Shown here piece by piece: positions 18,590-62,265 of a stretch of DNA of 64,000 nt. This DNA is from a virus (lineage: Duplodnaviria; Heunggongvirae; Uroviricota; Caudoviricetes): the IMG/VR virus record IMGVR_UViG_3300025644_000002; one strand, given 5' to 3'. The stretch's first letter is position 1. Every line of letters begins with the position of its first letter. The notes below the pieces were generated by a model that saw only the letters and a program-made list of their open reading frames with translations, did not search any database and was not told the DNA's origin. A program made the translations under genes and the position numbers.

Positions 18590-19690
18590 GCACCTGGGTG
18601 GTATGACATCCAGTTAAAGATAACCCCAGCAATGGGACTAAAAGCAGTCGGGTCTGTGAAATTATACCTGGCATTGCGTTGTTCTCCTTCGGGAGTGCAA
18701 ACATTTATACACTGCGAACTTCTATTTATCTTGTAAAAAATAGTCCAACACTCCAGGCTAACTGCGAGGCGTGAAGGTCGAGATACGTATCCCCTGAGGG
18801 GTAGGCAGAAATGTCTGTATAGTAATCGCAAGATATCCTGTCTGTCAAGCGGGTTATCAATTATATAGTTTGTCGGGATCAAGATATTGAGGCCTTCATT
18901 GGCTTCTAAGTCAAGAAGAGACAACTACTATGATGAAGGATCGGAGGCTGTCATGGCTAATGACTTACGAGGGCGAGTGGCATTATGTGGCTGAAAACTA
19001 CGTAACCACAACCGGGAACGCGTCCTCCCAATCACAGAAAAACCATAATGTAGCTCAGTTGGTAGAGCAACGGAATATTAATCCGTAGATCACGAGTTCG
19101 ATTCTCGTCATTTATAATGAAAGCAATTAGATTCCTGGCTGCTTATAATAAAAGATCACTAATATCGGCCTGTATAACGTCGAGCTCTGCGCCTCGCAAG
19201 GGTTGCAGCAGTATTTATAAGGAAGCGGTTAAGCTTGGCGGCAGCTAAGATAGTCGTGAAATTGTAGAGTTAATGTAAGTGGAAAGACCTGGCTCCATAC
19301 CTGGAGCTGTGATTGGTGTATTACGACGACGTAAGTCTGCGTGGAAACGAGGGGAATTGAAATGATCCCTTTAAAGATATACCGTACTAACTGTATTCTC
19401 AGGAAAAGTACAAACTTCATAAAACTGGGCCAAAGACGTAATAAAAACGTTGGGTGTCTATCCGAAGGAGTTGCAAGGCTAGAGCCTTCAATTTGGAAAA
19501 GAATTTAAGATAGGGCTTCCTACTTAACGTAGGTGGTGCGGGGATTAATAAGTCTCGCAAAGGGAGTTGCATCCCTCGGAAGAAGAGTTTACCCCTCAGC
19601 CACTCTCATCTTCCATAAAAAGAATACCAGGAAAGCCACCTGAAAAATTGGCCTTACGCCCGTGCACTCTGTGCCATCTTACAAGCGTAT
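18590..19690 (+). ncRNA. Candidate structured non-coding RNA region (~1.1 kb, hairpin-rich, higher GC)
   Basis: No ORF of 60 aa or longer on the plus strand. Hairpins include CTCC-TTCG-GGAG (UUCG tetraloop), GCTCCA-tacc-TGGAGC and GGGA…TCCC. A promoter box lies upstream and a tRNA-like gene is embedded. Confidence 0.35.
19044..19116 (+). tRNA. tRNA-like gene with canonical D and T arms, anticodon loop ATATTAA (formal anticodon AUU) and an imperfect acceptor stem
   Basis: GTAGCTCAGTTGGTAGAGC D-arm, ACGGA/TCCGT anticodon stem, ACGAG-TTCGATT-CTCGT T-arm; acceptor pairs poorly. Confidence 0.35.
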
Positions 19691-26981: not shown

Positions 26982-27191
26982 ATGAGTAAAGTAGGAAACA
27001 ACAGCGGAAAAGATTATATTCTATGTTGTTGTATATGCTCTTCAACTAGAAAGGACATCCACATGGTGGGGCATCGTAATAAAGATAACCACTTAATAGG
27101 CTTCCTTTATGTATGTGATGAACACACTAAACAAGTAGAAGGAAAAAACTTTCAAGTAAAGTTCGTAGATGAAAAAGAGGAGACTAAATAA
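26982..27191 (+). CDS. small Cys-rich zinc-finger protein
   Basis: CCCICSS…CDEH. Confidence 0.4.
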   Translation: MSKVGNNSGKDYILCCCICSSTRKDIHMVGHRNKDNHLIGFLYVCDEHTKQVEGKNFQVKFVDEKEETK

Positions 27192-27888
27192 TATGGGAGA
27201 CGGAACCCCACTAGGTGATCGTATGAAAGATTATGAAGCTACCTATAAATACAAGCTTCACAAAAGAATGCCAGTAATAATAAGAGTAGACGGTAGAGCG
27301 TTTCACACTCTTACAAGAAAATTATATGGAAGAGGATGGTCTACCGGATTCTCTGCAAATATGATGGAAACTGCTAGGGCTTCTATGGAAGATATGCAGT
27401 CAACAAAGTTTTGCTATGGTCAATCTGATGAGATCAGTTTTTTATTAACGGATTATAAAACTCATAACACACAGTCGTGGTTCAATAATTCCATACAGAA
27501 AATAGTATCAATTACAGCAGCTATCGTAAGCACTAACTTTTATTCAATAACTGGCGAAAAAGTGCAGTTTGATGCTAGAGCTTTTAATTTGGCAAAAGAT
27601 GAAGTGACAAACTATTATATCTGGAGACAACAAGATGCTATACGCAACGCTGTCCAGATGGTAGGAAGAGAGCATTTCTCTCAGAAAGAACTTCACATGA
27701 GAAGTGTTGAGAATATAAAACATCTTCTATCCAAAAAGATAGGAATTAATTTTGATGACTTCTCTAGTTTAAGACGACAAGGGTACTGTATAGACAATAA
27801 CCACCCAGATATGAATATCCCAGTGTTTGCCTCAGCTAGGGGTAAAGATTACATTGAAAAACATGTATATTTAATAGAAAATAATTAA
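27169..27888 (+). CDS. Thg1-like protein (tRNA-His guanylyltransferase family 3'-5' nucleotide polymerase)
   Basis: VIIRVDGRAFHTL ~ Thg1 VVVRLDGRNFHRF; CYGQSDEISFLL ~ AYGQSDEYSFVF; YYIWRQQDAIRNA ~ YLSWRQADCHINN. Confidence 0.7.
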   Translation: MKKRRLNNMGDGTPLGDRMKDYEATYKYKLHKRMPVIIRVDGRAFHTLTRKLYGRGWSTGFSANMMETARASMEDMQSTKFCYGQSDEISFLLTDYKTHNTQSWFNNSIQKIVSITAAIVSTNFYSITGEKVQFDARAFNLAKDEVTNYYIWRQQDAIRNAVQMVGREHFSQKELHMRSVENIKHLLSKKIGINFDDFSSLRRQGYCIDNNHPDMNIPVFASARGKDYIEKHVYLIENN

Positions 27889-44041: not shown

Positions 44042-44072
44042 CTTACAAAACGTACGTAAGAAACGGCGTAAC

Positions 44073-44140
44073 GGGGCGGTATCTCAGCAGGGTAGAGTTA
44101 GGGGATACCCTAGACATTGGTTCGAATCCAATCCGCGCTG
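44073..44140 (+). tRNA. tRNA-like gene (68 nt) whose anticodon arm is replaced by a TAGGG-GATA-CCCTA tetraloop hairpin
   Basis: Acceptor GGGGCGG/CCGCGCT, D-arm, canonical T-arm ATTGG-TTCGAAT-CCAAT, but no 7-nt anticodon loop can be folded. Confidence 0.35.
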
Positions 44141-44169
44141 TTACGTTCGTTCTTATTAAAAGGAAAACT

Positions 44170-48956: not shown

Positions 48957-49029
48957 TGGGGGCTCATCCAACGTAAAGGACGTCTGCAGAGGCAGGCGAA
49001 TGTGGGTTCAAATCCCACACCCCCAACCA
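48957..49029 (+). tRNA. tRNA-like gene with encoded ACCA, a canonical T-arm, and a 7-bp CGTCTGC/GCAGGCG + AGAG tetraloop hairpin in place of the anticodon arm
   Basis: TGGGGGC…ACCCCCA-A-CCA; GTGGG-TTCAAAT-CCCAC; no 5+7+5 anticodon arm can be folded. Confidence 0.35.
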
Positions 49030-49031
49030 AC

Positions 49032-49103
49032 GCCGTGGTCGTCTAATGGTAAGACGCTCTTAGTCCGCTAAGAGAAATGGAGGTTCAACTCCTTCCCTAG
49101 GCT
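49032..49103 (+). tRNA. tRNA-like gene with a non-canonical anticodon arm (CTCTT-AGTCCGCT-AAGAG, 8-nt loop, or a 6-bp stem with 6-nt loop)
   Basis: D-arm TCGTCTAATGGTAAGACG, T-arm GGAGG-TTCAACT-CCTTC, acceptor GCCGTGG/CCTAGGC with 2 mismatches. Confidence 0.35.
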
Positions 49104-49112
49104 CTAATTTAT

Positions 49113-52135: not shown

Positions 52136-52429
52136 ATGGAGAGGAAACAGATGTTTAAATTAAAAGTAGATGACGTTATAACGGTACGAGCTAGTACTGG
52201 CGAAGACCACATTCCGTCATACTGGACACAACGTAGGTGGGCAATAACTAAAGTTAGTCCCACTAAAATAGACGTTCAAGGATACGATAACTACGGTTGG
52301 AGAAAGATAGCAGAAAGACACTTTTTATTGAAAGACTATGCTATCGAGCGTTGTATAATAGAGGTGGTTGACGGTTCTTCCAGCCTAACCGTATTACGTA
52401 CAATACACTCTGGAAAGGATACCAAATAA
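52136..52429 (+). CDS. hypothetical protein (97 aa)
   Basis: ORF track. Confidence 0.4.
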   Translation: MERKQMFKLKVDDVITVRASTGEDHIPSYWTQRRWAITKVSPTKIDVQGYDNYGWRKIAERHFLLKDYAIERCIIEVVDGSSSLTVLRTIHSGKDTK

Positions 52430-53574
52430 TGTTAATTAATTCAATTTTAGATAACGACATATATAAATTTACACAACAAATGTTTGTTTGTCAGCAATTT
52501 CCAAACCTGGAAGTAGAATACAAGTGGATATTGAGAACTCCAGTTGAGTTTAGTGACTCGTTTGCTACAAAATTGATAAGCAATATTAACGCAATGGGAT
52601 CACTACGGTTAACTGATTCAGAAGCAACTTTTTTAAAAAAGAAATGTTATTATTTCACTCCCGTGTATAGGGACTTTTTAAAAGGGTATGCGTATGACTC
52701 TTCTGAAGTAGAAGTAATTTATGAACCCGGTAAACAACATCAATTTGAGATATGTATTAGAGGTCCCTGGTATAGGACTATACTGTGGGAAGTACCTATT
52801 ATGGCTATTATTTCAGAGATGTCTAATGGGGAATTAAGCCCGCTGTATGAGTTAGAAAAACAGAATATAGAAAAATTGAGAATTATACACGATAATCATT
52901 TAAGCGTAGCCGACTTCGGAACTAGACGAAGGCACTCTTATGACGTACATGATAAAACTCTTAATATTTTAAAGCATGGATTGGTAGGAACCTCTAATGT
53001 TCATTTTGCCAAAAAATATAATTTAACCCCAACAGGTACACAAGCTCACGAAGTATATATGGTCTTATCACGCCTATACGGTTACAAGATGGCAACTACT
53101 ATGGTATTAGAGAAATGGGTAGAAGTGTTTCAAGGAAGTCTGGGAACAGCTTTACCAGATACCTTTACTACAGACGTTTTTCTTAAAGAATTTGCCATGA
53201 AGTATTCTAAACTATTTGACGGTGTGAGGCAAGACAGTGGGGACCCGCTTGTGTTTGCTAACAAAATTATTAACCACTATGAGCATTTAAACATTGATCC
53301 GAAAAGTAAATTAATAATCTTTTCAGACAGTTTAAATCTCGAAAAAGCGGTACACATCGAAAAAGAAGTGAATAAGCACATTAAAACGGCTTACGGAATT
53401 GGTACCAACTTCACTAATGATACAGACGTTACACCATTGAATATGGTAATCAAAATTAACGCTGTTAAATTAAATGATGTATGGGAACCAGCTATTAAGT
53501 TGTCAGATTCCCCGGGAAAACATACAGGCGATCCAGACGAGATTGCGTTATGTAAACAAATATTAAAGGTTTAA
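52429..53574 (+). CDS. pncB: nicotinate phosphoribosyltransferase (PncB)
   Basis: LDNDIYKFTQQMFV, GPWYRTILWEVPIMAIISE, FGTRRRHS, TPTGTQAHE, RQDSGDP, KLSDSPGK all match E. coli PncB blocks. Confidence 0.75.
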   Translation: MLINSILDNDIYKFTQQMFVCQQFPNLEVEYKWILRTPVEFSDSFATKLISNINAMGSLRLTDSEATFLKKKCYYFTPVYRDFLKGYAYDSSEVEVIYEPGKQHQFEICIRGPWYRTILWEVPIMAIISEMSNGELSPLYELEKQNIEKLRIIHDNHLSVADFGTRRRHSYDVHDKTLNILKHGLVGTSNVHFAKKYNLTPTGTQAHEVYMVLSRLYGYKMATTMVLEKWVEVFQGSLGTALPDTFTTDVFLKEFAMKYSKLFDGVRQDSGDPLVFANKIINHYEHLNIDPKSKLIIFSDSLNLEKAVHIEKEVNKHIKTAYGIGTNFTNDTDVTPLNMVIKINAVKLNDVWEPAIKLSDSPGKHTGDPDEIALCKQILKV

Positions 53575-53576
53575 AT

Positions 53577-53606
53577 ACGTGGGGGCCAAGCGTCCCCACT
53601 TTTAAA
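53577..53606 (+). terminator. Rho-independent terminator (GTGGGGG…TCCCCAC + TTTT)
   Basis: cgtgggggccaagcgtccccactttt. Confidence 0.5.
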
Positions 53607-53610
53607 TAGA

Positions 53611-53694
53611 GCTGGTGTTACCTGAGCGGTCGAAAGGTCCTGATTTGTAATCAGGTGACGAAAGTCCACGTAGGTTCGAATCCTACCATCAGCC
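53611..53694 (+). tRNA. class II tRNA (Ser-like body, GAAA-capped variable arm) with anticodon loop TTTGTAA = anticodon UGU
   Basis: Acceptor GCTGGTG/CATCAGC, D-stem ACCT/AGGT, anticodon stem CCTGA/TCAGG, variable arm TGACGAAAGTCCAC, T-arm GTAGG-TTCGAAT-CCTAC. Confidence 0.45.
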
Positions 53695-53695
53695 C

Positions 53696-53780
53696 GTTGT
53701 CGGTGGCAGATTTGGTAATGCACTCGGCTGTGACCCGAGTTGGAGTTGCTCCTCATGCGGGTTCAAATCCCGTCCGACAC
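53696..53780 (+). tRNA. tRNA with a GUG (His) anticodon, a possible G-1, a T1:C72 mismatch and an unusually long variable arm
   Basis: Anticodon arm ACTCGG-CTGTGAC-CCGAGT; variable hairpin GGAG-ttg-CTCC; T-arm GCGGG-TTCAAAT-CCCGT. Confidence 0.45.
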
Positions 53781-53804
53781 CCCAATTAACTTAGGAACTA
53801 AAAA

Positions 53805-54161
53805 ATGAAAAATCCAAAATATATAGTCAGGCCAGACGATTCCTATATATGGGAATTAGACGAATCAAACAATTGCTATAGAAGCTATAAACCTATAAAA
53901 TATTCAGACGGCACAAGAGCAAACGCTCATGACAACTACACCTTTAAACGTTTAACAGAAATTTATGACTTTTTTCCTATTGAAGAAGACGAATTAGCGA
54001 AATATGAAGCTAAATGCAAGGATCATTATGCCTTTGTTGGTTGGCAGATCAGATCAGACGGTCACGGAGGGTGCAAAGGCGGAACTCGAGCCGAGTATGA
54101 GATATATTTGGAAAGAGTTGAACGTTACCAGAAATGGAAAAAAGAAGAAGGAATTGAATAA
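53805..54161 (+). CDS. hypothetical protein (118 aa)
   Basis: ORF track. Confidence 0.45.
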   Translation: MKNPKYIVRPDDSYIWELDESNNCYRSYKPIKYSDGTRANAHDNYTFKRLTEIYDFFPIEEDELAKYEAKCKDHYAFVGWQIRSDGHGGCKGGTRAEYEIYLERVERYQKWKKEEGIE

Positions 54162-54665
54162 TTGAAAGTAATATTTTTAGATATCGACGGCGTACTCAAT
54201 AATCGTGAGTCGGTACATAAACGACATGAAGAAAAGTTAGGAAATGTATGGCTTCCAGACATAACGCTAGTAGAACGCTTAAAGCAAATAATTGACGCAA
54301 CTGGAGCACAAATAGTAGTATCCTCAACTTGGAGACTTCATGGTGATTCATTTATGTTTAGACATCTATTTGCTGCCTTGGGATTCAATTTACCCTTCGT
54401 AATAGGGAAGAGTACCCCAAGACTACATAAAAGAAGAGGCATAGAAATTCAACAATGGCTTGATGAGCATAATGCCGAATACGACGCAGATCCTGAGTTC
54501 TCTAAAGAACATTACCACGAAAGAGCCGATTCCTTCATAATTTTGGACGATGACTCAGACATGGAGCATTTAATGGATCGACTAGTACAAACAAAAACAG
54601 ATTTAGGTCTACAAGATGAGCATGTAGAACAAGCAATTAAATTATTAAATACTCCGGCGGGGTAG
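54162..54665 (+). CDS. HAD-superfamily phosphatase
   Basis: Motif I FLDIDGVLN; TTG start per track. Confidence 0.5.
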   Translation: MKVIFLDIDGVLNNRESVHKRHEEKLGNVWLPDITLVERLKQIIDATGAQIVVSSTWRLHGDSFMFRHLFAALGFNLPFVIGKSTPRLHKRRGIEIQQWLDEHNAEYDADPEFSKEHYHERADSFIILDDDSDMEHLMDRLVQTKTDLGLQDEHVEQAIKLLNTPAG

Positions 54666-54727
54666 CTCAGGGGTAGAGCGGTGGATTGAAGATCCACGCG
54701 ACGGTGGTTCGATTCCATCTTTCGCCA
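54656..54727 (+). tRNA. tRNA-Phe (GAA)
   Basis: Anticodon arm GTGGA-TTGAAGA-TCCAC; D-arm TAGCTCAGGGGTAGAGC. Confidence 0.65.
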
Positions 54728-54821
54728 CAGACTCATCTGCCATCGCTTGCGTGTAAGAGCAGAAGGAGATGGGAGCGCGCAATATAATAACTGCAGAAAA
54801 AAGTATCGCGTCGCTCTTTAC

Positions 54822-54914
54822 GGAGAGGTGTAAGAGAATGGTATTCTGCCGGTCTTGAAAACCGGTGCGCCCCCGCAAGGGGGTCTGCAGGTTCGATCCC
54901 TGTCCTCTCCTCCA
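54822..54914 (+). tRNA. tRNA-Ser (TGA), class II, CCA encoded
   Basis: Acceptor GGAGAGG/CCTCTCC is perfect; anticodon arm CCGGT-CTTGAAA-ACCGG; variable arm GCGCCCCCGCAAGGGGGTC. Confidence 0.7.
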
Positions 54915-54987
54915 GGGCCTTTAGCTCAATTGGCTGAGCAACACACTCATAATGTGTAGGATGCTGGTTCGAGTCCAGCAGGGCCCA
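54915..54987 (+). tRNA. tRNA-Met (CAT), elongator type
   Basis: Acceptor GGGCCTT/AGGGCCC; anticodon arm ACACA-CTCATAA-TGTGT. Confidence 0.7.
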
Positions 54988-55035
54988 CAAAAAAAATGGT
55001 TAGGTGATGTAATTGGGAAACATCTTCGCGTAGTA

Positions 55036-55120
55036 GGCTGTTCGACTCAGTAACACTTCAGTAGATATACTATATAGTGGACGCATGGTGCGTATGCAGG
55101 TTCGAGTCCTGTCCTAGCCA
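55036..55120 (+). tRNA. class II tRNA-like gene or pseudogene (85 nt) with no foldable anticodon arm
   Basis: T-arm GCAGG-TTCGAGT-CCTGT, variable hairpin ACGCA-tgg-TGCGT, acceptor GGCTGTT/CCTAGCC with 2 mismatches; the anticodon region is ATATACTATAT. Confidence 0.25.
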
Positions 55121-55297
55121 CTAATAACAAAGAGGATAAATGAAAGAAAAGAAAGAAAAACCACAAGTCACATGGACTGGGTTTCTAAAATTATGGGCTA
55201 TTGGAGATGATCAAAAACGAGCCAAAGAAAAAGCTAAATTGTTAAAAACTTATAACAATATCCAAGATGATTTAAACAGTAAAAAAGGAAAGGAACA

Positions 55298-55696
55298 GTG
55301 ATAAACAGAGTATTTTTAGGAGGCACTTGCGCACATACAACCTGGAGGAATCAAATAATTCCTCAACTAACTATAGACTACTTTAATCCAGATGTGGAAG
55401 ACTGGACAGAGGCGTGCCAAGCAATAGAAATGGATGAAAAAGACAATAAATGTAATGTACATTTTTATCTTATTTCTAAAGAAATGCAAGGAGTATTTTC
55501 CATAGCAGAAGTTGTAAATAGCGCACACACCCACGGCAAACGAACTATATTGCACGTTAGGCCTGATGGATTTGATAAAGGACAGCTCAAAAGTTTAAAA
55601 GCTACTGTAGAGTTAGTAAATGCTGCAGGAGGAATAGCTTACATAGATAACAACATACACAGGGCGGTTACCATATTAAACAACTGCTTTGCTTAA
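55298..55696 (+). CDS. hypothetical protein (132 aa) adjacent to the NAD genes
   Basis: ORF track; GTG start. Confidence 0.4.
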   Translation: MINRVFLGGTCAHTTWRNQIIPQLTIDYFNPDVEDWTEACQAIEMDEKDNKCNVHFYLISKEMQGVFSIAEVVNSAHTHGKRTILHVRPDGFDKGQLKSLKATVELVNAAGGIAYIDNNIHRAVTILNNCFA

Positions 55697-55713
55697 TTTA
55701 AAAAGGAAAACAG

Positions 55714-56505
55714 ATGAAACTTAGACAAGACATAATTGACTTACAAGATTTTATAAAAAGAACAGTAGAAGATGCAGGTGCTGATGGGGTAGTCATAGGA
55801 TTATCTGGAGGAGTAGACTCCGCAGTAATTGCGGCTTTAGCTCAAAGAGCTTTAGGGCCAGAGAAGGTTATGGCGGTGTGGCTGCCTTACCATGAAACAG
55901 TTATTCCCTCAATATCTAATTTATTTCATGGAGCTGATAATATACTAGCTCTTGCAAAACATCTCCAATTAAACCTTAATTGTATAGATATTACCACTTC
56001 TGTAGACGCCATGATAGAGGGTATGACTTATATCCAAACAGAGGCAATAACTACCCTCACAAAAGGGAATATGAAAGCCCGGGCCCGCATGTCTGCACTG
56101 TACCTGCTAGCAAATAGTACCAATAACCTCGTAATAGGAACAACTAACAAGTCTGAATACGAAATAGGGTACTTTACTAAATATGGAGACGGTGGAGTAG
56201 ATTTTGAACCATTGTTAGAGTTTTACAAATTTGAAGTTAGAGAAATAGCTAGAGAATTAGAGCTACCTAACGAATATGCAAATGCGGTAGCTTCTGCGGG
56301 ATTATGGGAAGGACAAACTGATGAACAAGAATTTGGATTTACATACCAAGAACTAGATTCTTATTTGATTTGGTGGAGTACTATGGACTGTGAAAATGTA
56401 CCATCTCCGGTTTCTGTAGAAGTTATGAATAATATCGAAAGTATGATAAACAATAGCCGTCATAAACGCGATAATATTCCAAGCTTTTTAAGGGACATAG
56501 CCTAA
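55714..56505 (+). CDS. nadE: NH3-dependent NAD+ synthetase (NadE)
   Basis: PP-loop GLSGGVDSAV. Confidence 0.7.
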   Translation: MKLRQDIIDLQDFIKRTVEDAGADGVVIGLSGGVDSAVIAALAQRALGPEKVMAVWLPYHETVIPSISNLFHGADNILALAKHLQLNLNCIDITTSVDAMIEGMTYIQTEAITTLTKGNMKARARMSALYLLANSTNNLVIGTTNKSEYEIGYFTKYGDGGVDFEPLLEFYKFEVREIARELELPNEYANAVASAGLWEGQTDEQEFGFTYQELDSYLIWWSTMDCENVPSPVSVEVMNNIESMINNSRHKRDNIPSFLRDIA

Positions 56506-57098
56506 TGCCAAAAATTAAGATTAAATTTGTATCAGACGCTTTAATAGAGCCCCAACATGTAATAGCTGAAACATTAAATCTAGAAAATGAAGCTGGAGAA
56601 ACTACTGATTGGGAAATAGTTAGAAGAATTGGAAACCAAAAGTCTGTAGCGGGAGTATTTCATGACCGCTCTGGAAGATTCTTACTAATTAAGGAGTGGA
56701 GACCTGCGTTAGATAACTACATTTGGTCATTTCCAGCAGGTATGATAGAAGAGGGAGAAACTCCAGAAGACGCTATGCGTAGAGAATTGTTGGAGGAAAC
56801 TGGATATGAAGTAGACGGGGCTTGTAGAGTATTTCCTGCAGCCATCAATACCGCAGGAATGTCAGATGAAGCAACTCATTTAGTAATGGGAGCTTTAGGA
56901 AGTTACTTACCAGAGCAACAGTCGTTAGGAGACTTTGAAGATATAGACCAAATAATCTTAATTAATGGTTATAATTTACTTAGTTTCATAGCCTCTGAAA
57001 AAGCAAAAAAAGTAGAAATCTCAAGCAGACTTCTGTCATTTGCAGCAGGATTATCTTTTATGGAATCTCCAAATTACGAATATATAAGGATGAAATAA
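56505..57098 (+). CDS. Nudix hydrolase
   Basis: Nudix box PAGMIEEGETPEDAMRRELLEETG. Confidence 0.65.
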   Translation: MPKIKIKFVSDALIEPQHVIAETLNLENEAGETTDWEIVRRIGNQKSVAGVFHDRSGRFLLIKEWRPALDNYIWSFPAGMIEEGETPEDAMRRELLEETGYEVDGACRVFPAAINTAGMSDEATHLVMGALGSYLPEQQSLGDFEDIDQIILINGYNLLSFIASEKAKKVEISSRLLSFAAGLSFMESPNYEYIRMK

Positions 57099-57634
57099 TG
57101 AGAACAATTCACATATACGGGGGGTCATTTGATCCTCCTCACTTGGGACATATGGCAGCTGTTGAATACTTAAATAATAAAATATATAACTCCGAATACC
57201 CTAGTTCAGATTTATTACTTATTTGCCCGTCATTTAATCCCTTTAAAATAGAACAACCTCTTCAAAGCGATTACAACGACAAAGTAGCAATGTGTGCTAA
57301 AGCTTTCCCAAATAACTTTATATTACATTATAACCATACGTATATGATGAGTTTAATTAATCATATACAGATTATGTATTATAATGTGAATATTGTAATT
57401 TATGTAGGCGATGATGATACTGGGTTAGAAGTTCATAAGTGGCAGGATATTGATGAAATTAAAAAATGCGCAGCTATAGAGTCGATTGATTTAGGAAAGA
57501 TTTCAGAGTATACTCACGCAAGTAGCGGTAAAGTTAGAGAACACATTTGTAAAGCTGAGTATGAGTTGGCTGGAAGATTACTCGACGGAAGTATCTTTGG
57601 CTATATTATAGGACATCAACTATATAAAGAATAA
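57098..57634 (+). CDS. nadD: nicotinate/nicotinamide mononucleotide adenylyltransferase (NadD-like)
   Basis: GGSFDPPHLGH (HxGH nucleotidyltransferase motif). Confidence 0.65.
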   Translation: MRTIHIYGGSFDPPHLGHMAAVEYLNNKIYNSEYPSSDLLLICPSFNPFKIEQPLQSDYNDKVAMCAKAFPNNFILHYNHTYMMSLINHIQIMYYNVNIVIYVGDDDTGLEVHKWQDIDEIKKCAAIESIDLGKISEYTHASSGKVREHICKAEYELAGRLLDGSIFGYIIGHQLYKE

Positions 57635-57637
57635 ATT

Positions 57638-58021
57638 ATGGAAAGAATAATTACAGAAGAATATCTAATAGAAAATCCCACACACATTTTTGTGTTTGGA
57701 GATAATTTATTACGAAAAGGTAAAAAAGGTGCTTCAGAGCTTAGAGACCTCCCTAATGTCCTTGGGTTTATTACAAAAAAGTATCCTAATTATAAAGATA
57801 GCTCATACTACCATCCGGAAGAATACAAAACAGTTTTTGAAAACGAATTTGATATGTTAACAGCTATGATACAAGTCAAACATGATAACATATTCCTCAT
57901 ATCAAAACTAGGAAGCGGGTTGGCTAATAAGTACGGTATCTGGGAAAAAATCATTTGTAATAGACTAAAAGAATTAATTGAAGTAGATAATGTAGAATTC
58001 TTATTTGATTTTGAGAATTAA
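57638..58021 (+). CDS. hypothetical protein (127 aa)
   Basis: ORF track. Confidence 0.45.
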   Translation: MERIITEEYLIENPTHIFVFGDNLLRKGKKGASELRDLPNVLGFITKKYPNYKDSSYYHPEEYKTVFENEFDMLTAMIQVKHDNIFLISKLGSGLANKYGIWEKIICNRLKELIEVDNVEFLFDFEN

Positions 58022-58250
58022 AACCACTATACTTAAGTATATAACCAGTATACAAAATAAAGGAGCAGTTATGCAAAAAATGATAAGGGTGGGAAGTTGT
58101 TCCCAATGCCCTAAATGGACTGGATGCCCTCTAATCAGCAAACTGTCAGAACCGGATAAATGGACGTTACAATTTGGAGAAAAGGCGGACTTTAAAAATA
58201 GAGGTCTTTTAAAAGGTTGTCCATTGGAAAATGCTCCGGAAAAGAAATAG
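58005..58250 (+). CDS. hypothetical Cys-containing protein (81 aa)
   Basis: ORF track. Confidence 0.4.
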   Translation: MILRIKTTILKYITSIQNKGAVMQKMIRVGSCSQCPKWTGCPLISKLSEPDKWTLQFGEKADFKNRGLLKGCPLENAPEKK

Positions 58251-58322
58251 ACGCGGGAAGGATGTTGGCTTCCGGAAAGGACTCATAACTCTTTCAACGC
58301 GGGTTCGATCCCCGCTCCCGCT
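58251..58322 (+). tRNA. tRNA with anticodon loop CTCATAA (CAT; Met or Ile-lysidine type), C1-T72 mismatch
   Basis: T-arm GCGGG-TTCGATC-CCCGC; acceptor CGCGGGA/TCCCGCT. Confidence 0.5.
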
Positions 58323-58326
58323 ACAA

Positions 58327-58378
58327 GGCTCTCAGTGCACAAAACCGTGGCCTCATGAGCTGAGGTTGAGAGCTACCA
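58327..58378 (+). ncRNA. armless mini tRNA-like gene (52 nt): 7-bp acceptor stem GGCTCTC/GAGAGCT + A + CCA around a single CTCATGA-containing hairpin
   Basis: Lies between two CAT tRNAs; has no D- or T-arm. Confidence 0.3.
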
Positions 58379-58392
58379 ATTTAAAAATCAAA

Positions 58393-58470
58393 CGCGGGGT
58401 GATAGCAGTCTGGTAGCTTGCGAGGCTCATAACCTTGAGGTCGGGGGTTCGAATCCCTCCCCCGCAACCA
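58393..58470 (+). tRNA. initiator tRNA-fMet (CAT), CCA encoded
   Basis: CGCGGGG…CCCCCGCAACCA with a C1-A72 mismatch, as in E. coli tRNA-fMet; anticodon loop CTCATAA. Confidence 0.7.
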
Positions 58471-58529
58471 ATTCATTGTCGGAAGGCAATAATCCTATTA
58501 GTTAATAAGGTACAATAAACCTAATAGGC

Positions 58530-58603
58530 GCGGTGTAGAGCAGAGAATAGCTCGCCCCCCAGGCAGGGGGGAGGACACAGGTTAAAGTCCTGTCACCGCA
58601 ACC
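58530..58603 (+). tRNA. initiator-like tRNA-like gene with a C6/G6 anticodon stem, loop AGGCA/CAGGCAG (no U33) and T-loop TTAAAGT
   Basis: CGCGGTG…CACCGCA-A-CCA mirrors the fMet acceptor; D-arm GAGC-AGAGAATA-GCTC. Confidence 0.3.
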
Positions 58604-58606
58604 AAT

Positions 58607-58707
58607 AGTTAGGTCGTCCAAATAGACTAAGACATGTGAAAAACGGGTGGCGTGAACAGTCACTGGCGATTAGTAACATATATAGGTTTAAGTCCTATCC
58701 TAACTGC
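58607..58707 (+). tRNA. 101-nt tRNA-like gene with a perfect acceptor stem (AGTTAGG/CCTAACT), T-loop TTTAAGT and internal GTGA-acag-TCAC hairpin
   Basis: Too long for class I or II; no foldable anticodon arm. Confidence 0.25.
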
Positions 58708-59300
58708 TAGAGGGGAAGTTATCCGGATATATGCTGATGCATATCAGCGCAGGTGCAAGATCCTGTACTTCCCCACCAATTAACGCGAGTTCGTCTAAGT
58801 CTAGGAACCTCTTTGTTAGAGAGGGAATGTAGTGTAATAAACTACACTCGCGACCAAATTATAAGTAGGAAGTAGGCTTAGAAGCAGCCATCTTTTAAAG
58901 AGTGATAACTCATGCTCTAAACATGACGTAGCAGTTGGATAAAATCTACCTCCAGGGAAAAGGCATTGGGGGCTGTAGCTAGGAGTGCCTCCTAGTTGTC
59001 TTTGGCGTAACAGCACACTATTTATATACATTAATTAAACTTTCAAGTTGCCTTGAGGGCACAGAGGATGTACGATTGGAACAGAGGATGTATCGCACAC
59101 AGCGATCTGTTGAGAGGGCCTACGCTATCGGGTTGATCACCGATCGAACTAACGCCAAACATTCATGAGATCCTCGGTGAGCGACCTGAACAACTTGAAA
59201 CACCTTTACCCAGTAGCAATACTGGAGAAGAGTCGTCGAATAGAGCCCCAAGATCCCTTCTATTCGGCGATTTAGTTTATAACTGATAACTTAACCAAAA
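58708..59300 (+). ncRNA. Candidate structured non-coding RNA region (~0.6 kb)
   Basis: Nested stems GGGGAAGT…ACTTCCCC (58712-58774) around GCTGAT-gcat-ATCAGC; CGCGAGT…ACTCGCG (58785-58851); direct repeat ACAGAGGATGTA x2; a T-arm-like ATCGG-GTTGATCA-CCGAT; no plus-strand ORF. Confidence 0.3.
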
Positions 59301-59306
59301 AATAAA

Positions 59307-59666
59307 ATGATACAAATTAAAACATATAAAGATTATACTAACCCAGTAGTCCCTACCTATTCAGAAAAAACTTGGCAGATAGAAGCCCTAACACTAATAC
59401 GAGGAGCTATAGTACAGGCAGGACTCCGCGACTCATGCGATGTTAATAAGTATGCCCAAATAATAGATCCTGACATAATTAGCATATTACATGGGACTCC
59501 GTATGCTAATATGGATATCACGGGCCCTTGTATGGCAGTGGCTTATACACTACATTCCATATCTAGTACTTATATACAATGCGGATATAATGATAATGTA
59601 ATATCCATTAGATTAGACCATGCAGGAACCTGGGCAAAATTTGTGGAAGAGTTTAAGGAGCTATAA
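59307..59666 (+). CDS. hypothetical protein (119 aa)
   Basis: ORF track. Confidence 0.45.
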   Translation: MIQIKTYKDYTNPVVPTYSEKTWQIEALTLIRGAIVQAGLRDSCDVNKYAQIIDPDIISILHGTPYANMDITGPCMAVAYTLHSISSTYIQCGYNDNVISIRLDHAGTWAKFVEEFKEL

Positions 59667-60218
59667 ATGAAGCCTAAAAGAATTAAAGGTATATCTCCTG
59701 CAATAATGCTGACAAACCCAAAGTTTGCAGTTAACGTTGGAGCTACAGTTAGGGCAGCGTCATGTTGGGGAGCAGAGCAAGTTTATTGGACTGGACATAG
59801 AGTGCAGCATCCAGATGAATGGACAGAAAAATATAGACTTCCAAGGGAAGAACGTATGAAGGGATACAAAGAAGTATCTATGCATAGAGTTGATACGTTA
59901 AAACATACATTGAAAAATTTTAGCGAAGACACAGTTCCGGTAGCAATAGAATTAAGGCCTGGATCTGAAATGTTATTTGATTTTGAACATCCTGAAAACG
60001 CAGTGTATGTATTCGGCCCAGAAGATGGTGGGCTGGATTGGAAAACATTACAACATTGTCATCGATTTGTGGTACTACCCACGGCCCACTGTACTAATTT
60101 AGCAGCAGCCGTAAATGTAGTATTAGCTCATCGGAAAGAACAAAGATTTAAAAAGGGGTTAATTCCCGATATTTATGATTCTTTACAAGAGGATCGTGGA
60201 TTTATAGGTAACTGCTAA
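59667..60218 (+). CDS. SpoU/TrmH-family RNA 2'-O-methyltransferase
   Basis: IMLTNPKFAVNVGATVRAASCWG, VYVFGPEDGGLD and TAHCTNLAAAVNVVL match SPOUT motifs 1-3. Confidence 0.55.
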   Translation: MKPKRIKGISPAIMLTNPKFAVNVGATVRAASCWGAEQVYWTGHRVQHPDEWTEKYRLPREERMKGYKEVSMHRVDTLKHTLKNFSEDTVPVAIELRPGSEMLFDFEHPENAVYVFGPEDGGLDWKTLQHCHRFVVLPTAHCTNLAAAVNVVLAHRKEQRFKKGLIPDIYDSLQEDRGFIGNC

Positions 60219-60586
60219 TGAAAGTAAAAATAGTTTGTAAAACGTGCGAGGGTAAGGGTAAATATGACGCTAAAGGTTTAGTACCGTGGCCAATTCCTTG
60301 CCCTACCTGTGAAAGTAAAGGATATGACTTAGCTACCATTTGGGAAATAGATAACTACGATCAGTATTGTAACGGTTGTAAATACTTGGTAGATACTCAT
60401 GAATATACTGCAAATGGGCAGGGAATACAGTACATGCAGTATTGCTGTAAGGTAACAACTTTTCCAAAAATTGGAGGCGAAAACTGCTTTACTACTTTTG
60501 GAGATATACCAAGTCCGAGATGGTGCCCAGGAAAGGAACTAATTCCCAAAGATACAAAAATAACGATAACAATCAAAAATAATTAA
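60218..60586 (+). CDS. Cys-rich zinc-finger protein (122 aa)
   Basis: CKTCEGKGK…CPTCESKG. Confidence 0.45.
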   Translation: MKVKIVCKTCEGKGKYDAKGLVPWPIPCPTCESKGYDLATIWEIDNYDQYCNGCKYLVDTHEYTANGQGIQYMQYCCKVTTFPKIGGENCFTTFGDIPSPRWCPGKELIPKDTKITITIKNN

Positions 60587-61883: not shown

Positions 61884-62180
61884 ATGTCCCCTTTTTTATT
61901 TATATTATGTAGAAAGGATTTAGATCCAGTTTACGCAGCAGTCCAAGGAGGGCATGCAGTTGCAGAAATTTTACTTAATGGCAACACACAGGAATGGAAT
62001 AACGATTATCTCATTTATCTTGCAGTTCGGGATGAACAGGAGCTCGAAAAATGGCAATACAAACTTTCATCCCGGGATGTTAGTCATTCCTCTTTTTATG
62101 AGCCTGATTTAGACGGGCAACTAACTGCTATTGCAGTTGAAAATAATAATAAATTATTTAAAAGCTTAAGAACCTTATAA
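61884..62180 (+). CDS. PTH2-like (peptidyl-tRNA hydrolase 2 family) protein
   Basis: ILCRKDLDPVYAAVQGGHAVAE resembles the PTH2 VRxDL…GK…AQxxHA motif. Confidence 0.35.
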   Translation: MSPFLFILCRKDLDPVYAAVQGGHAVAEILLNGNTQEWNNDYLIYLAVRDEQELEKWQYKLSSRDVSHSSFYEPDLDGQLTAIAVENNNKLFKSLRTL

Positions 62181-62185: not shown

Positions 62186-62261
62186 GGCTGGGTAGCTCAA
62201 TTGGATAGAGCGGGGGACTCTAAATCCCTGTCAGCTACAGGTTCGAGCCCTGTCCCGGCCA
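62186..62261 (+). tRNA. putative amber suppressor tRNA (anticodon CUA, loop CTCTAAA)
   Basis: Hand fold: acceptor GGCTGGG/CCCGGCC (1 GU pair), D-arm TAGCTCAATTGGATAGAGC, anticodon stem GGGGA/TCCCT, U33 present, T-arm ACAGG-TTCGAGC-CCTGT. Confidence 0.65.
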
Positions 62262-62265
62262 CAAT

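Follow-up and report, generated by a model that had tools for sequence, protein, structure and literature searches.

A tandem array of seven tRNA-shaped units in the RNA-repair island of a very large marine phage: one initiator tRNA and candidate non-decoding tRNA mimics

INTRODUCTION

Phage tRNAs counter tRNA-cleaving defenses, as exemplified by T5 tRNA-Lys against PARIS, T5 tRNA-Tyr against the retron PtuAB, and phage tRNAs whose anticodon loops are altered (PMC11464382, PMC11555353, PMC10264068). The tRNA cluster of phage T4 also encodes a pair of small RNAs called RNAC and RNAD (species 1 and 2), whose function is unknown (PMC3014915, PMC9697503). YrlA Y RNAs, which are partners of Ro60, possess a tRNA-like module (T arm, D arm, and acceptor-like stem) that is recognized by tRNA enzymes; the YrlA of M. 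smegmatis is cut by RNase P and receives CCA, and some YrlA RNAs are phage-encoded and linked to RNA repair (PMC4201824). Here, we describe a tandem array of seven tRNA-shaped units, designated E1 to E7, in a 64,000-nt stretch of DNA (hereafter, the window) from the IMG/VR virus record IMGVR_UViG_3300025644_000002 (Caudoviricetes), which is best viewed as a variant of the tRNA-derived small RNA genes found in phage tRNA clusters.

Like the counter-defense tRNA arrays of other phages, the array consists of tRNA-derived genes that lie in a large phage tRNA island beside tRNA repair genes, and its anticodon loops are also non-canonical. Counter-defense tRNAs are chargeable decoders that replace or outlast the cleaved host tRNA, whereas most units of the array appear unable to decode. 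The array, which is known here from sequence alone, shares its location within a phage tRNA cluster with T4 RNAC and RNAD but, unlike these two RNAs, comprises tandem acceptor-arm look-alikes with encoded ACCA. YrlA RNAs are distinguished by a Ro60-binding helix and by a position no more than 4 kb from the Ro60 (TROVE) gene; the array units do not qualify as YrlA or other Y RNAs, with no match to RF02553 between positions 57500 and 60500 at E ≤ 10 and no TROVE domain in the 43 window open reading frames (ORFs) scanned. We propose, at a probability of roughly 0.4, that the units would be co-transcribed and processed into non-decoding tRNA mimics that may act as decoys for tRNA-directed host factors, the decoy role itself being speculative.

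RESULTS

Seven tRNA-shaped units arranged head to tail

The array fills the first 605 nt of a 1,056-nt gap without gene calls, which separates a 59-amino-acid (aa) ORF (58071–58250) from a 119-aa ORFan (59307–59666). All seven units are on the (+) strand, head to tail, and each is closed by a terminal stem of 7 to 8 bp, with spacers of 3, 14, 58, 2, 5, and 5 nt between successive units. The acceptor and T-type stems are fully paired in 7 out of 7 units, the sole exceptions being initiator-type mismatches at 1:72. Five units (E2, E3, E4, E6, and E7) encode ACCA followed by A, and encoded CCA is thus found in 5 out of 7 array units versus 2 out of 21 other tRNAs of the window (Fisher p = 0.004). 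The elbow contacts formed by the D-loop GG and T-loop C56 are missing in the five clearly non-canonical units, and the anticodon loop of the aberrant units is closed, enlarged, or replaced. Compared with shuffled sequences, E2, E4, E6, and E7 displayed fold z-scores ranging from −2.2 to −4.9.

A strict structural scan, which required a 7-bp acceptor stem and an abutting 5-bp T stem with a 7-nt loop, matched E1, E3, E4, E5, and E7, that is, five units in 610 nt. The same scan returned ~11.3 matches per 64 kb per strand on shuffled sequence (Poisson P ~1e-7 for five matches in 610 nt), and a chance origin of the array is excluded. The five elements proposed in the earlier note were each recovered at their place on the (+) strand with the features described there, and the array runs past the end that the note had given it to include E6 and E7.

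We next compared the units with two covariance models. Using the Rfam model of canonical tRNA (RF00005; gathering threshold, 29 bits) in a 3-kb search (57500–60500, E ≤ 10), we found that only E3 passes (35.6 bits), while E1, E2, and E4 to E7 are not reported as tRNA. The second model, R2, was built from 36 diverse phage initiator tRNAs that were fetched from IMG/VR via their common anticodon arm. E3 is the top R2 match in the window (87.4 bits), followed in the array by E4 (54.6 bits) and E1 (41.3 bits), both within the 20 to 66 bits of ordinary elongator tRNAs; E2, E5, E6, and E7 are not reported. E1, E3, and E4 align to R2 in full register, which bears out the view of a compact cluster with one real initiator tRNA and aberrant tRNA-like genes, several of them initiator-derived. 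The same three units lack a Watson-Crick pair at 1:72 (C1×U72 in E1, C1×A72 in E3 and E4), and E7 has a paired C1:G72. Of the 611 phage tRNAs whose acceptor stem is resolvable, 121 carry a 1:72 mismatch, and 114 of these 121 carry CAU. Within the array, CAU in a 7-nt loop with U33, the MetRS identity arrangement, is present in E3 only.

Initiator-type units E3, E1, and E4

E3 combines C1×A72 with a CAU anticodon, A11:U24, and an encoded ACCA. Its D stem contains one bulged nucleotide, a common variant in an IMG/VR phage initiator subfamily, which accounts for the low Rfam score. In the anticodon stem, two of the three pairs at 29–31:39–41 are G:C and the remaining one is A29:U41, an arrangement also present in at least 118 IMG/VR phage initiators. 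A blastn search of GenBank phages showed 83% to 89% identity between E3 and the tRNA-Met of Rak2-like jumbo phages. Judged by these features, by the ARAGORN call as tRNA-Met, and by the R2 score, E3 is the bona fide phage-type initiator tRNA-fMet with C1-A72 that the earlier note had recognized.

E1, which had been described as a CAT tRNA with a C1-T72 mismatch and proved to be one, has the acceptor stem CGCGGGA/TCCCGCT and A73 but no encoded CCA (ACAA). This acceptor and the AC that follows it are identical to those of a common IMG/VR phage initiator type, and C1×U72 is also present in the 635-kb phage LR745206. The T arm of E1 (GCGGG-TTCGATC-CCCGC) is canonical. Its D arm is weak, with a 3-bp stem, and its CAU lies either in a 9-nt loop or in a 7-nt loop closed by an A×C mismatch, with CTCATAA contained in the loop. 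Junction lengths are non-standard, and no G:C pairs occur in register at 29–31:39–41. ARAGORN calls E1 as tRNA-Met solely at a lowered threshold (-ps80) or in mitochondrial mode (-mt).

E4 is the initiator look-alike with a C6/G6 anticodon stem, no U33, and the T loop TTAAAGT that the earlier note had singled out. It agrees with the initiator consensus in the acceptor stem (C1×A72, G2:C71, C3:G70, and G4:C69) and in the D stem (A11:U24); its D loop carries AA in place of GG, and its T loop has no C56. In place of the anticodon arm is C6-AGGCA-G6, a 6-bp stem that closes a 5-nt loop containing GGC; where initiators have G:C pairs at 29–31:39–41, E4 has five C:G pairs in reversed orientation. 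Differences from the consensus affect 13 out of 17 positions in the anticodon arm versus 6 out of 31 in the 5′ part (p = 1.7e-4), such that the arm is replaced wholesale with every pair kept. The fold z-score of E4 is −4.9, with 0 out of 200 shuffles folding as well, and E4 is the only initiator-type acceptor with a non-CAU "anticodon" among the 611 phage tRNAs. This pattern indicates that E4 is not randomly decayed and points to targeted remodeling of its anticodon arm.

Reduced and enlarged units E2, E5, E6, and E7

The mini-element E2 has a 7-bp terminal stem (GGCTCTC/GAGAGCT, with G1·T72) followed by the encoded ACCA and contains two hairpins, one of 3 bp and one of 6 bp with a 5-nt loop, the second of which is stacked on the terminal stem (fold z = −2.4). 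Its 52-nt length, 7-bp acceptor stem, and ACCA are as originally described, but the CUCAUGA that had been taken as a mark of its hairpin lies in the inner-hairpin stem and not in a 7-nt anticodon-like loop. E6 is closed by an 8-bp terminal stem, GGGGAAG(T)/(A)CTTCCCC, with encoded ACCA. Inside it are 13 nt without pairing, a hairpin of 6 bp with a loop of 4 nt (GCUGAU-GCAU-AUCAGC), and a T-like hairpin of 5 bp with a loop of 8 nt (z = −2.2). In both E2 and E6, the terminal stem and the hairpin nearest to the 3′ strand are directly stacked, so that the stack counts 13 pairs where the canonical one has 12.

E5 is the tRNA-like element with a perfect acceptor stem and the T loop TTTAAGT reported in the earlier note. 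The 7-bp stem is AGTTAGG/CCTAACT with G73 and no encoded CCA, the T arm is ATAGG-TTTAAGT-CCTAT, the D stem has 3 bp with no GG in the loop, and ~50 nt stand in place of the anticodon arm. We considered whether E5 is an intron-containing tRNA and rejected this candidate, as the 22-nt "intron" model of ARAGORN is unconvincing.

E7 has the acceptor CGCGAGT/ACTCGCG with A73 and encoded ACCA, and shares with E1, E3, and E4 only the acceptor start CGCG. Its anticodon loop, UUGUUAG (nominally GUU), can be drawn with a 5-bp stem and 7-nt loop, the small D arm is without GG, and the T loop is GUAAUAA (z = −2.5). E7 gave no match to Rfam tRNA in the 3-kb search or to R2. A recent copy of the tRNA-Asn of the window was rejected as its origin, since a by-eye comparison showed nothing alike beyond GTT.

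Comparison with other tRNA-derived RNAs

E3 is a bacterial-type initiator tRNA, and E1 and E4 retain the hallmarks of its acceptor end; in contrast to tRNA-fMet, E4 is devoid of CAU, U33, and the elbow contacts, and E1 has an enlarged loop and no G:C pairs in the anticodon stem. The shapes of E2, E6, and E7, in which the D arm is reduced or absent and the T loop is non-canonical, resemble armless or truncated mitochondrial tRNAs, and the mitochondrial mode of ARAGORN picks up E1 and E7. However, minimal mitochondrial tRNAs keep a 7-nt anticodon loop and have a co-evolved translation system, neither of which holds for the array.

Two other candidates were rejected. For transfer-messenger RNA (tmRNA), including its permuted form, ARAGORN reported none by default and, at a lowered threshold, only an implausible 690-nt "permuted" construct spanning multiple units with "tag not identified"; the Rfam tmRNA match is a 17-bit partial hit to the T arm of E1 versus a 47-bit threshold. 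The units are also not tRNA fragments at integration sites (att), because both their 5′ and 3′ acceptor strands are complete.

Similar elements in the window and in other phages

Closed anticodon arms are not confined to the array. The element at 48957–49029 has an anticodon arm closed by a 7-bp stem and 4-nt loop (z = −4.1) and encodes ACCAAC, and similarly closed arms (6- to 7-bp stems, 4-nt loops) occur at 44072–44141 and at 49032–49104, the latter called "tRNA-??? (cc)" by ARAGORN. tRNAs with short anticodon loops were also found in other phages, at loci L031, L078 (twice), L102, and L121. T loops without C56 are rare in phage tRNAs (~9 out of 533) and include those of two otherwise normal tRNAs, a tRNA-fMet (L014) and a tRNA-Asp (L129).

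Applied to 118 IMG/VR loci with a phage initiator tRNA, the strict scan uncovered 28 tRNA-shaped elements within 300 nt of tRNA genes that ARAGORN had missed. Most of the 28 have canonical TTCRA T loops and are thus tRNA-derived rather than chance matches. Minis of 55 to 61 nt, in which an acceptor stem and a T arm are combined with a single hairpin, are present at L104, L062, and L030. In addition, six contigs share a family of ~80-nt cloverleaf-shaped elements without a normal anticodon loop, 5 to 8 nt upstream of an initiator tRNA (Table 1). Their mini D arm has 4 bp, their "anticodon" arm is long and bulged, and their T-like arm has 6 bp; the four sequence variants have fold z-scores of −3.0 to −4.6, and a comparison of three sequences revealed compensatory changes in 9 out of 29 consensus pairs. 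The family is absent from the window; its placement is analogous to that of E2 before E3.

A second family comprises long tRNA-like genes (AGTCAGG...CCTGACT-AC) with a near-constant acceptor, a Leu-type D arm, a T arm, A73, and a hypervariable insert. It occurs on at least ten IMG/VR contigs with up to four copies each and lengths of 55 to 156 nt. In 20 aligned matches, two of which resemble ordinary tRNAs, all acceptor and T-stem cells are paired, and at L088 two paralogues share one insert with compensatory changes. Rfam scores some members as tRNA (30 to 36 bits), and we know of no separate family for these genes. Because LeuRS does not read the anticodon, the elements might be chargeable scaffolds, which is speculation.

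We scored E5 against R1, a model of this long family (insert, 25 to 100 nt) that was built without E5. E5 ranked second in the window with 33.9 bits (E = 8e-8), below the 45 to 103 bits of clear members and within the 32 to 37 bits that ordinary tRNAs reach in the larger search, so that E5 is at most a candidate member. It resembles the family in architecture, its acceptor AGTTAGG/CCTAACT being a compensated difference, but has neither the D-loop GG nor the TTCGAAT T loop. The top R1 match in the window (37.7 bits) is a 124-nt tRNA-like element at 54998–55121, directly after tRNA-Met (54915–54988); its acceptor is GGTTAGG/CCTAGCC, its T arm is normal, and it contains a large internal insert.

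Two further observations concern other phages. In Rak2-like jumbo phages, a conserved T-arm-like hairpin, ACAAG-TGAAAGT-CTTGT, lies 3′ of tRNA-Met and tRNA-Ala and is followed by ...GTAT-ACCAAT; genes for a structural protein and a tRNA methyltransferase come next. In Kaldavass, the hairpin covaries to ACAGG/CCTGT. This hairpin with ACCAAT was rejected as an analogue of the array, the "acceptor" pairing being poor in GAP32 and Kaldavass. GOLLD RNA (322 bits) and tmRNA genes occur inside tRNA arrays at L104 (7219–7625 and 7805–8203) and L111 (4116–4478).

Search for relatives of the array

No array-bearing relative was found in IMG/VR, JGI metagenomes, GTDB genomes, GenBank phages, or a collection of 5.8 billion proteins. 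Specifically, the 119-aa ORF protein had no match in IMG/VR and is an ORFan in the 5.8-billion-protein set. In IMG/VR, the flanking DUF7831 protein led to two loci (53% to 59% identity) without synteny; one exact E4 pattern matched nothing, and another matched only an unrelated high-GC phage initiator tRNA. The nearest SpoU relative in the protein set (77% identity) lies on a 1-kb contig with another gene order, and the DUF7831 relatives there reach no more than 64% identity, none with an array. JGI metagenomes with the E3 pattern gave seven initiator loci, all unrelated, GTDB genomes gave no match, and blastn of GenBank phages matched only the tRNA-Met segment. For E2, E6, and E7, blastn detected no homologue, either among ~1.3 Mb of phage tRNA loci or among GenBank phages, and the spacer has none in the fetched loci.

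At least 24 long contigs carry the array in identical form, and the flanking proteins are indexed in 73 to 84 blocks of the collection. The array-bearing population is essentially clonal, so that identity across contigs is a weak point against decay.

At two loci with DUF7831 relatives (64% identity; L143, 7353–8600, and L144, 6781–8094), the gene is located 0.96 kb upstream of a CCA-adding enzyme gene, which is followed by RlaP. This suggests that DUF7831 is itself linked to tRNA maturation or repair.

Phage and gene setting

The source of the window is a very large phage from marine metagenomes. Identical copies of window proteins occur in dozens of metagenome samples, on contigs as long as 211,738 bp, and the GenBank phage relatives of a 563-aa, weakly kinase-like window protein are found solely in "uncultured phage" genomes of 462 to 595 kb (~34% identity). 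At NCBI, one window protein is assigned to a metagenome-assembled genome of Candidatus Scalindua, which is a binning label and not host evidence.

The region from ~27 to 60 kb of the window is a tRNA and RNA-repair island around the array (Table 1). Such a set of RNA-repair genes in jumbo phages has been interpreted as countering host effectors that target RNA (PMC7824862). Genes for NAD salvage and synthesis (NAPRTase, NadE, Nudix, and NMNAT; 52429–57634), a set that looks complete, directly precede the array, with a NADAR-domain gene farther upstream, which suggests a counter to NAD-depleting or ADP-ribosylating defenses. A 98-aa ORF at 61884 was an early guess for a PTH2-type hydrolase that is without Pfam support and was rejected.

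ARAGORN detected 22 tRNA genes in the window, among them canonical Met, fMet, and Asn tRNAs, and Rfam added one more. That additional tRNA (19045–19116, 58.7 bits) was missed by ARAGORN at default settings and has the loop AUAUUAA with the nominal anticodon AUU. In the tRNAs called Thr(TGT) (53611–53695, 85 nt) and His(GTG) (53697–53784, 88 nt), the D arm is class II-style and the variable arm is long, an unusual combination for Thr and His identity. The His gene encodes C73-CCA but not G-1, which fits the presence of the phage Thg1-like enzyme. A tRNA with the anticodon CTA (62186–62262) is of the amber suppressor type and is labeled "Pyl" by ARAGORN; TAG still serves as a stop codon in the window, e.g., at 58248–58250.

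The 59-aa ORF that borders the array has no Pfam match. The array contains no terminator-like site, and its promoter-like sites do not exceed the background. The only long spacer contains a hairpin that is partly present in the fold of the whole array. The 450 nt that complete the gap on the 3′ side are more G+C-rich than their surroundings and fold better than shuffles (z = −2.8), contain the direct repeat ACAGAGGATGTA at 59061–59072 and 59081–59092, and gave no Rfam match at E ≤ 10; several 7- to 9-bp hairpins are also present. This segment may not be part of the array.

Table 1. Coordinates of the array units, their flanks, neighboring genes, and related elements in other phages
Feature	Coordinates	Strand	Description
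E1	58252–58323	+	Degenerate phage-type initiator copy; R2 41.3 bits
E2	58327–58378	+	52-nt tRNA-like mini without normal arms
E3	58393–58470	+	Working-looking initiator tRNA; ARAGORN tRNA-Met, Rfam, R2
E4	58529–58604	+	Initiator look-alike; CGCGGTG...CACCGCA+ACCA; R2 54.6 bits
E5	58607–58706	+	100-nt tRNA-like
E6	58712–58778	+	67-nt tRNA-like without D arm
E7	58784–58856	+	Cloverleaf; ARAGORN -mt, strict scan
59-aa ORF	58071–58250	+	5′ edge of gap; stop TAG ends 1 nt before E1
8-bp hairpin CCTATTAG ... CTAATAGG	58494–58528	+	In the only long spacer (58 nt); ends at E4 position −1
Rest of gap	58857–59306	+	450 nt, non-coding, no gene call
119-aa ORFan	59307–59666	+	3′ edge of gap
Thg1-like 3′-5′ polymerase	27169–27888
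RNase T-like exonuclease	start 30811
T4 Rnl1-type ligase	start 38203
Rnl2-type ligase	start 39941
Polynucleotide kinase-phosphatase (PNKP)	start 41414
RlaP nucleotidyltransferase	start 47162
NADAR	start 51214
NAPRTase	start 52429
"Swiss-army-knife" HAD (SAK-HAD)	start 54162
NadE, Nudix, NMNAT	55714–57634
SpoU-type RNA methyltransferase	59667–60218		Directly 3′ of 119-aa ORFan
Pre-initiator cloverleaf family	L017 (oriented 576–657), L034 91–172, L038 10670–10749, L097, L107, L111 5861–5939
Long tRNA-like family	L020, L043, L046, L052, L058, L088, L092, L104, L105, L110		4 copies at L088
Rak2-like T-arm-like hairpin	L008 4290–4360		Pectobacterium phage CBB; equivalent site in L009, L010, L012

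DISCUSSION

In the pathway that we propose, the array would be transcribed with the flanking (+)-strand genes as one precursor, which host tRNA-processing enzymes would cut into units, with RNase P acting at each 5′ end. RNase P releases tandem tRNA-like units from a single transcript, the RNA of the bacterial enzyme is contacted by the 3′ RCCA end, and acceptor/T minihelices with RCCA are minimal RNase P substrates. The genome-encoded ACCA would supply a ready-made 3′ end, which would be most important for units with an elbow too aberrant for RNase Z and the CCA-adding enzyme; since both enzymes need a normal tRNA shape, such units would need CCA in the gene. This expectation fits E2, E4, E6, and E7, with E5 as the exception.

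E3 would be the working initiator tRNA of the array and E1 a second initiator copy of the phage C1×U72 type, at best a poor decoder because of its enlarged anticodon loop and weak D arm. E2, E4, E5, E6, and probably E7 would be unable to decode, yet they would present an intact acceptor/T-type coaxial stack. Decoding would have been lost through closure of the loop (E4, E6, and E2), a long insert (E5), or a non-canonical elbow (E7); units without a 7-nt anticodon loop would not decode, and without CAU or G3:U70, charging by MetRS or AlaRS is not expected. The mimics could then occupy tRNA-directed host factors, for example anticodon nucleases or toxins by which the acceptor end is modified or cut, and would not be consumed because they have no normal scissile anticodon loop. 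In this way they would complement the tRNA supply and the repair enzymes encoded nearby. The idea in the earlier note that tRNA-targeting toxins are titrated is compatible with the unit anatomy and with the RNA-repair gene context.

Several points weigh against this proposal. E1 and E5 fold no better than shuffles (z = −1.8 and −1.0, respectively), and E5 is without encoded CCA despite its aberrant T loop. The units are heterogeneous, with E2 and E6 devoid of arms that many tRNA-binding proteins need. Stoichiometric decoys facing catalytic nucleases must be abundant or bind tightly, and both the host and the target defense system are hypothetical. Furthermore, selection is inferred from one sequence (stem integrity, the patchy divergence of E4, and encoded CCA) rather than from cross-genome covariation, and the sole strain variant (L142) has 2 single-nucleotide polymorphisms in 8.7 kb, none of them in the array.

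A serious rival and the main alternative, possible if on the unlikely side, is that the aberrant units are pseudogenes, relics of tandem duplication of the initiator and other tRNAs that a very large genome tolerates until they are lost, with only E3 functional. The initiator-type body common to E1, E3, and E4 (but in E7 reduced to the CGCG acceptor start), the E1 and E5 folds, the uniqueness of the E4 type among the phage tRNAs surveyed, and the lack of homologues of E2, E6, and E7 are all what such relics would leave, and conservation is not demonstrated, with no array-bearing relative found. Neutral decay, however, is not expected to enrich a cluster for encoded ACCA, nor does it sit well with 0 broken pairs in seven acceptor and seven T-type stems while loops and other arms are unrecognizable, or with a divergence of E4 that is confined largely to one arm and fully compensated there. 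The identity of the array in the long contigs adds little, given the clonal population.

It is less likely still that E1 (Met/initiator) and E7 (Asn-type) are working decoders whose odd loops and elbows resist host anticodon nucleases. Nuclease-resistant phage tRNAs with mutant anticodon loops have been proposed (PMC10264068), T loops without C56 do occur in otherwise canonical phage tRNAs, E1 retains CAU, a canonical T arm, and the common phage C1×U72 acceptor, and E7 can be drawn with a normal-sized anticodon stem and loop. Yet the loop of E1 has 9 nt or is mismatch-closed between non-standard junctions; E7 combines A73 with no D-loop GG and the T loop GUAAUAA and falls below the reporting level of both Rfam tRNA and R2. 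Canonical Met, fMet, and Asn tRNAs are already available in the window, and the explanation is inapplicable to E2, E4, E5, and E6.

A role in cis appears improbable. Here, the units would be processing punctuation or stability elements, with RNase P and RNase Z cuts parting upstream from downstream mRNAs, or scaffolds for an embedded RNA such as the E5-type insert. The location of the array, flanked by co-oriented genes and lacking promoter or terminator signals above background, would suit this role, as would the status of RCCA-bearing minihelices as RNase P substrates and the near-constant tRNA scaffold with a hypervariable insert seen in E5-type elements elsewhere, but seven tandem units far exceed punctuation needs and most of them hold no insert. 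The further suggestion that the aberrant units are processing intermediates does not fit, as the genome encodes every unit as a gene of its own, closed by a separate acceptor stem. Finally, the titration of methionyl-tRNA formyltransferase or IF2 by initiator look-alikes, as put forward in the earlier note, is very improbable: E4 does retain the features that the formyltransferase reads (1×72 mismatch, G2:C71, C3:G70, and A11:U24), but both proteins act on initiator tRNA charged with Met or fMet and recognize that charged 3′ end, E4 has neither CAU (the main MetRS identity element) nor G3:U70 (AlaRS), look-alikes without CAU in a normal 7-nt loop would by established identity rules stay uncharged and compete poorly, and E2 and E6 have no initiator acceptor.

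Returning to the proposal of non-decoding mimics, a broader version of it, which we regard as doubtful, is that very large phages encode a class of such mimics that serve as uncleavable competitive ligands, i.e., RNA anti-defense factors, for host nucleases directed at tRNA or toxins that modify acceptor ends, in concert with phage tRNA repair enzymes and with E4 as a purpose-built initiator mimic. Members of this putative class, an equally doubtful construct, would keep the acceptor/T-arm stack intact, usually encode ACCA, close or replace the anticodon loop, and remove the elbow contacts. E4, which is unusual among more than 600 phage tRNAs and is an initiator body altered solely in its anticodon arm and elbow, and E2 and E6, which are minimal acceptor helices with encoded CCA, are ready-made test objects. 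The proposal bears on the current question of the reason for the abundance of tRNA-like genes in large phages. Even if the units are decay relics, standard tRNA finders miss about one-third of the tRNA-derived units in the window. Phage tRNAs have lately been found to beat tRNA-cleaving immunity by resupplying the cleaved tRNA. If the proposal is true, the array would represent a second, RNA-based principle of counter-defense, in which tRNA-shaped non-decoders present docking parts to nucleases, toxins, or processing enzymes, and it would account for the many "pseudo" or unclassifiable tRNA calls in large phage genomes.

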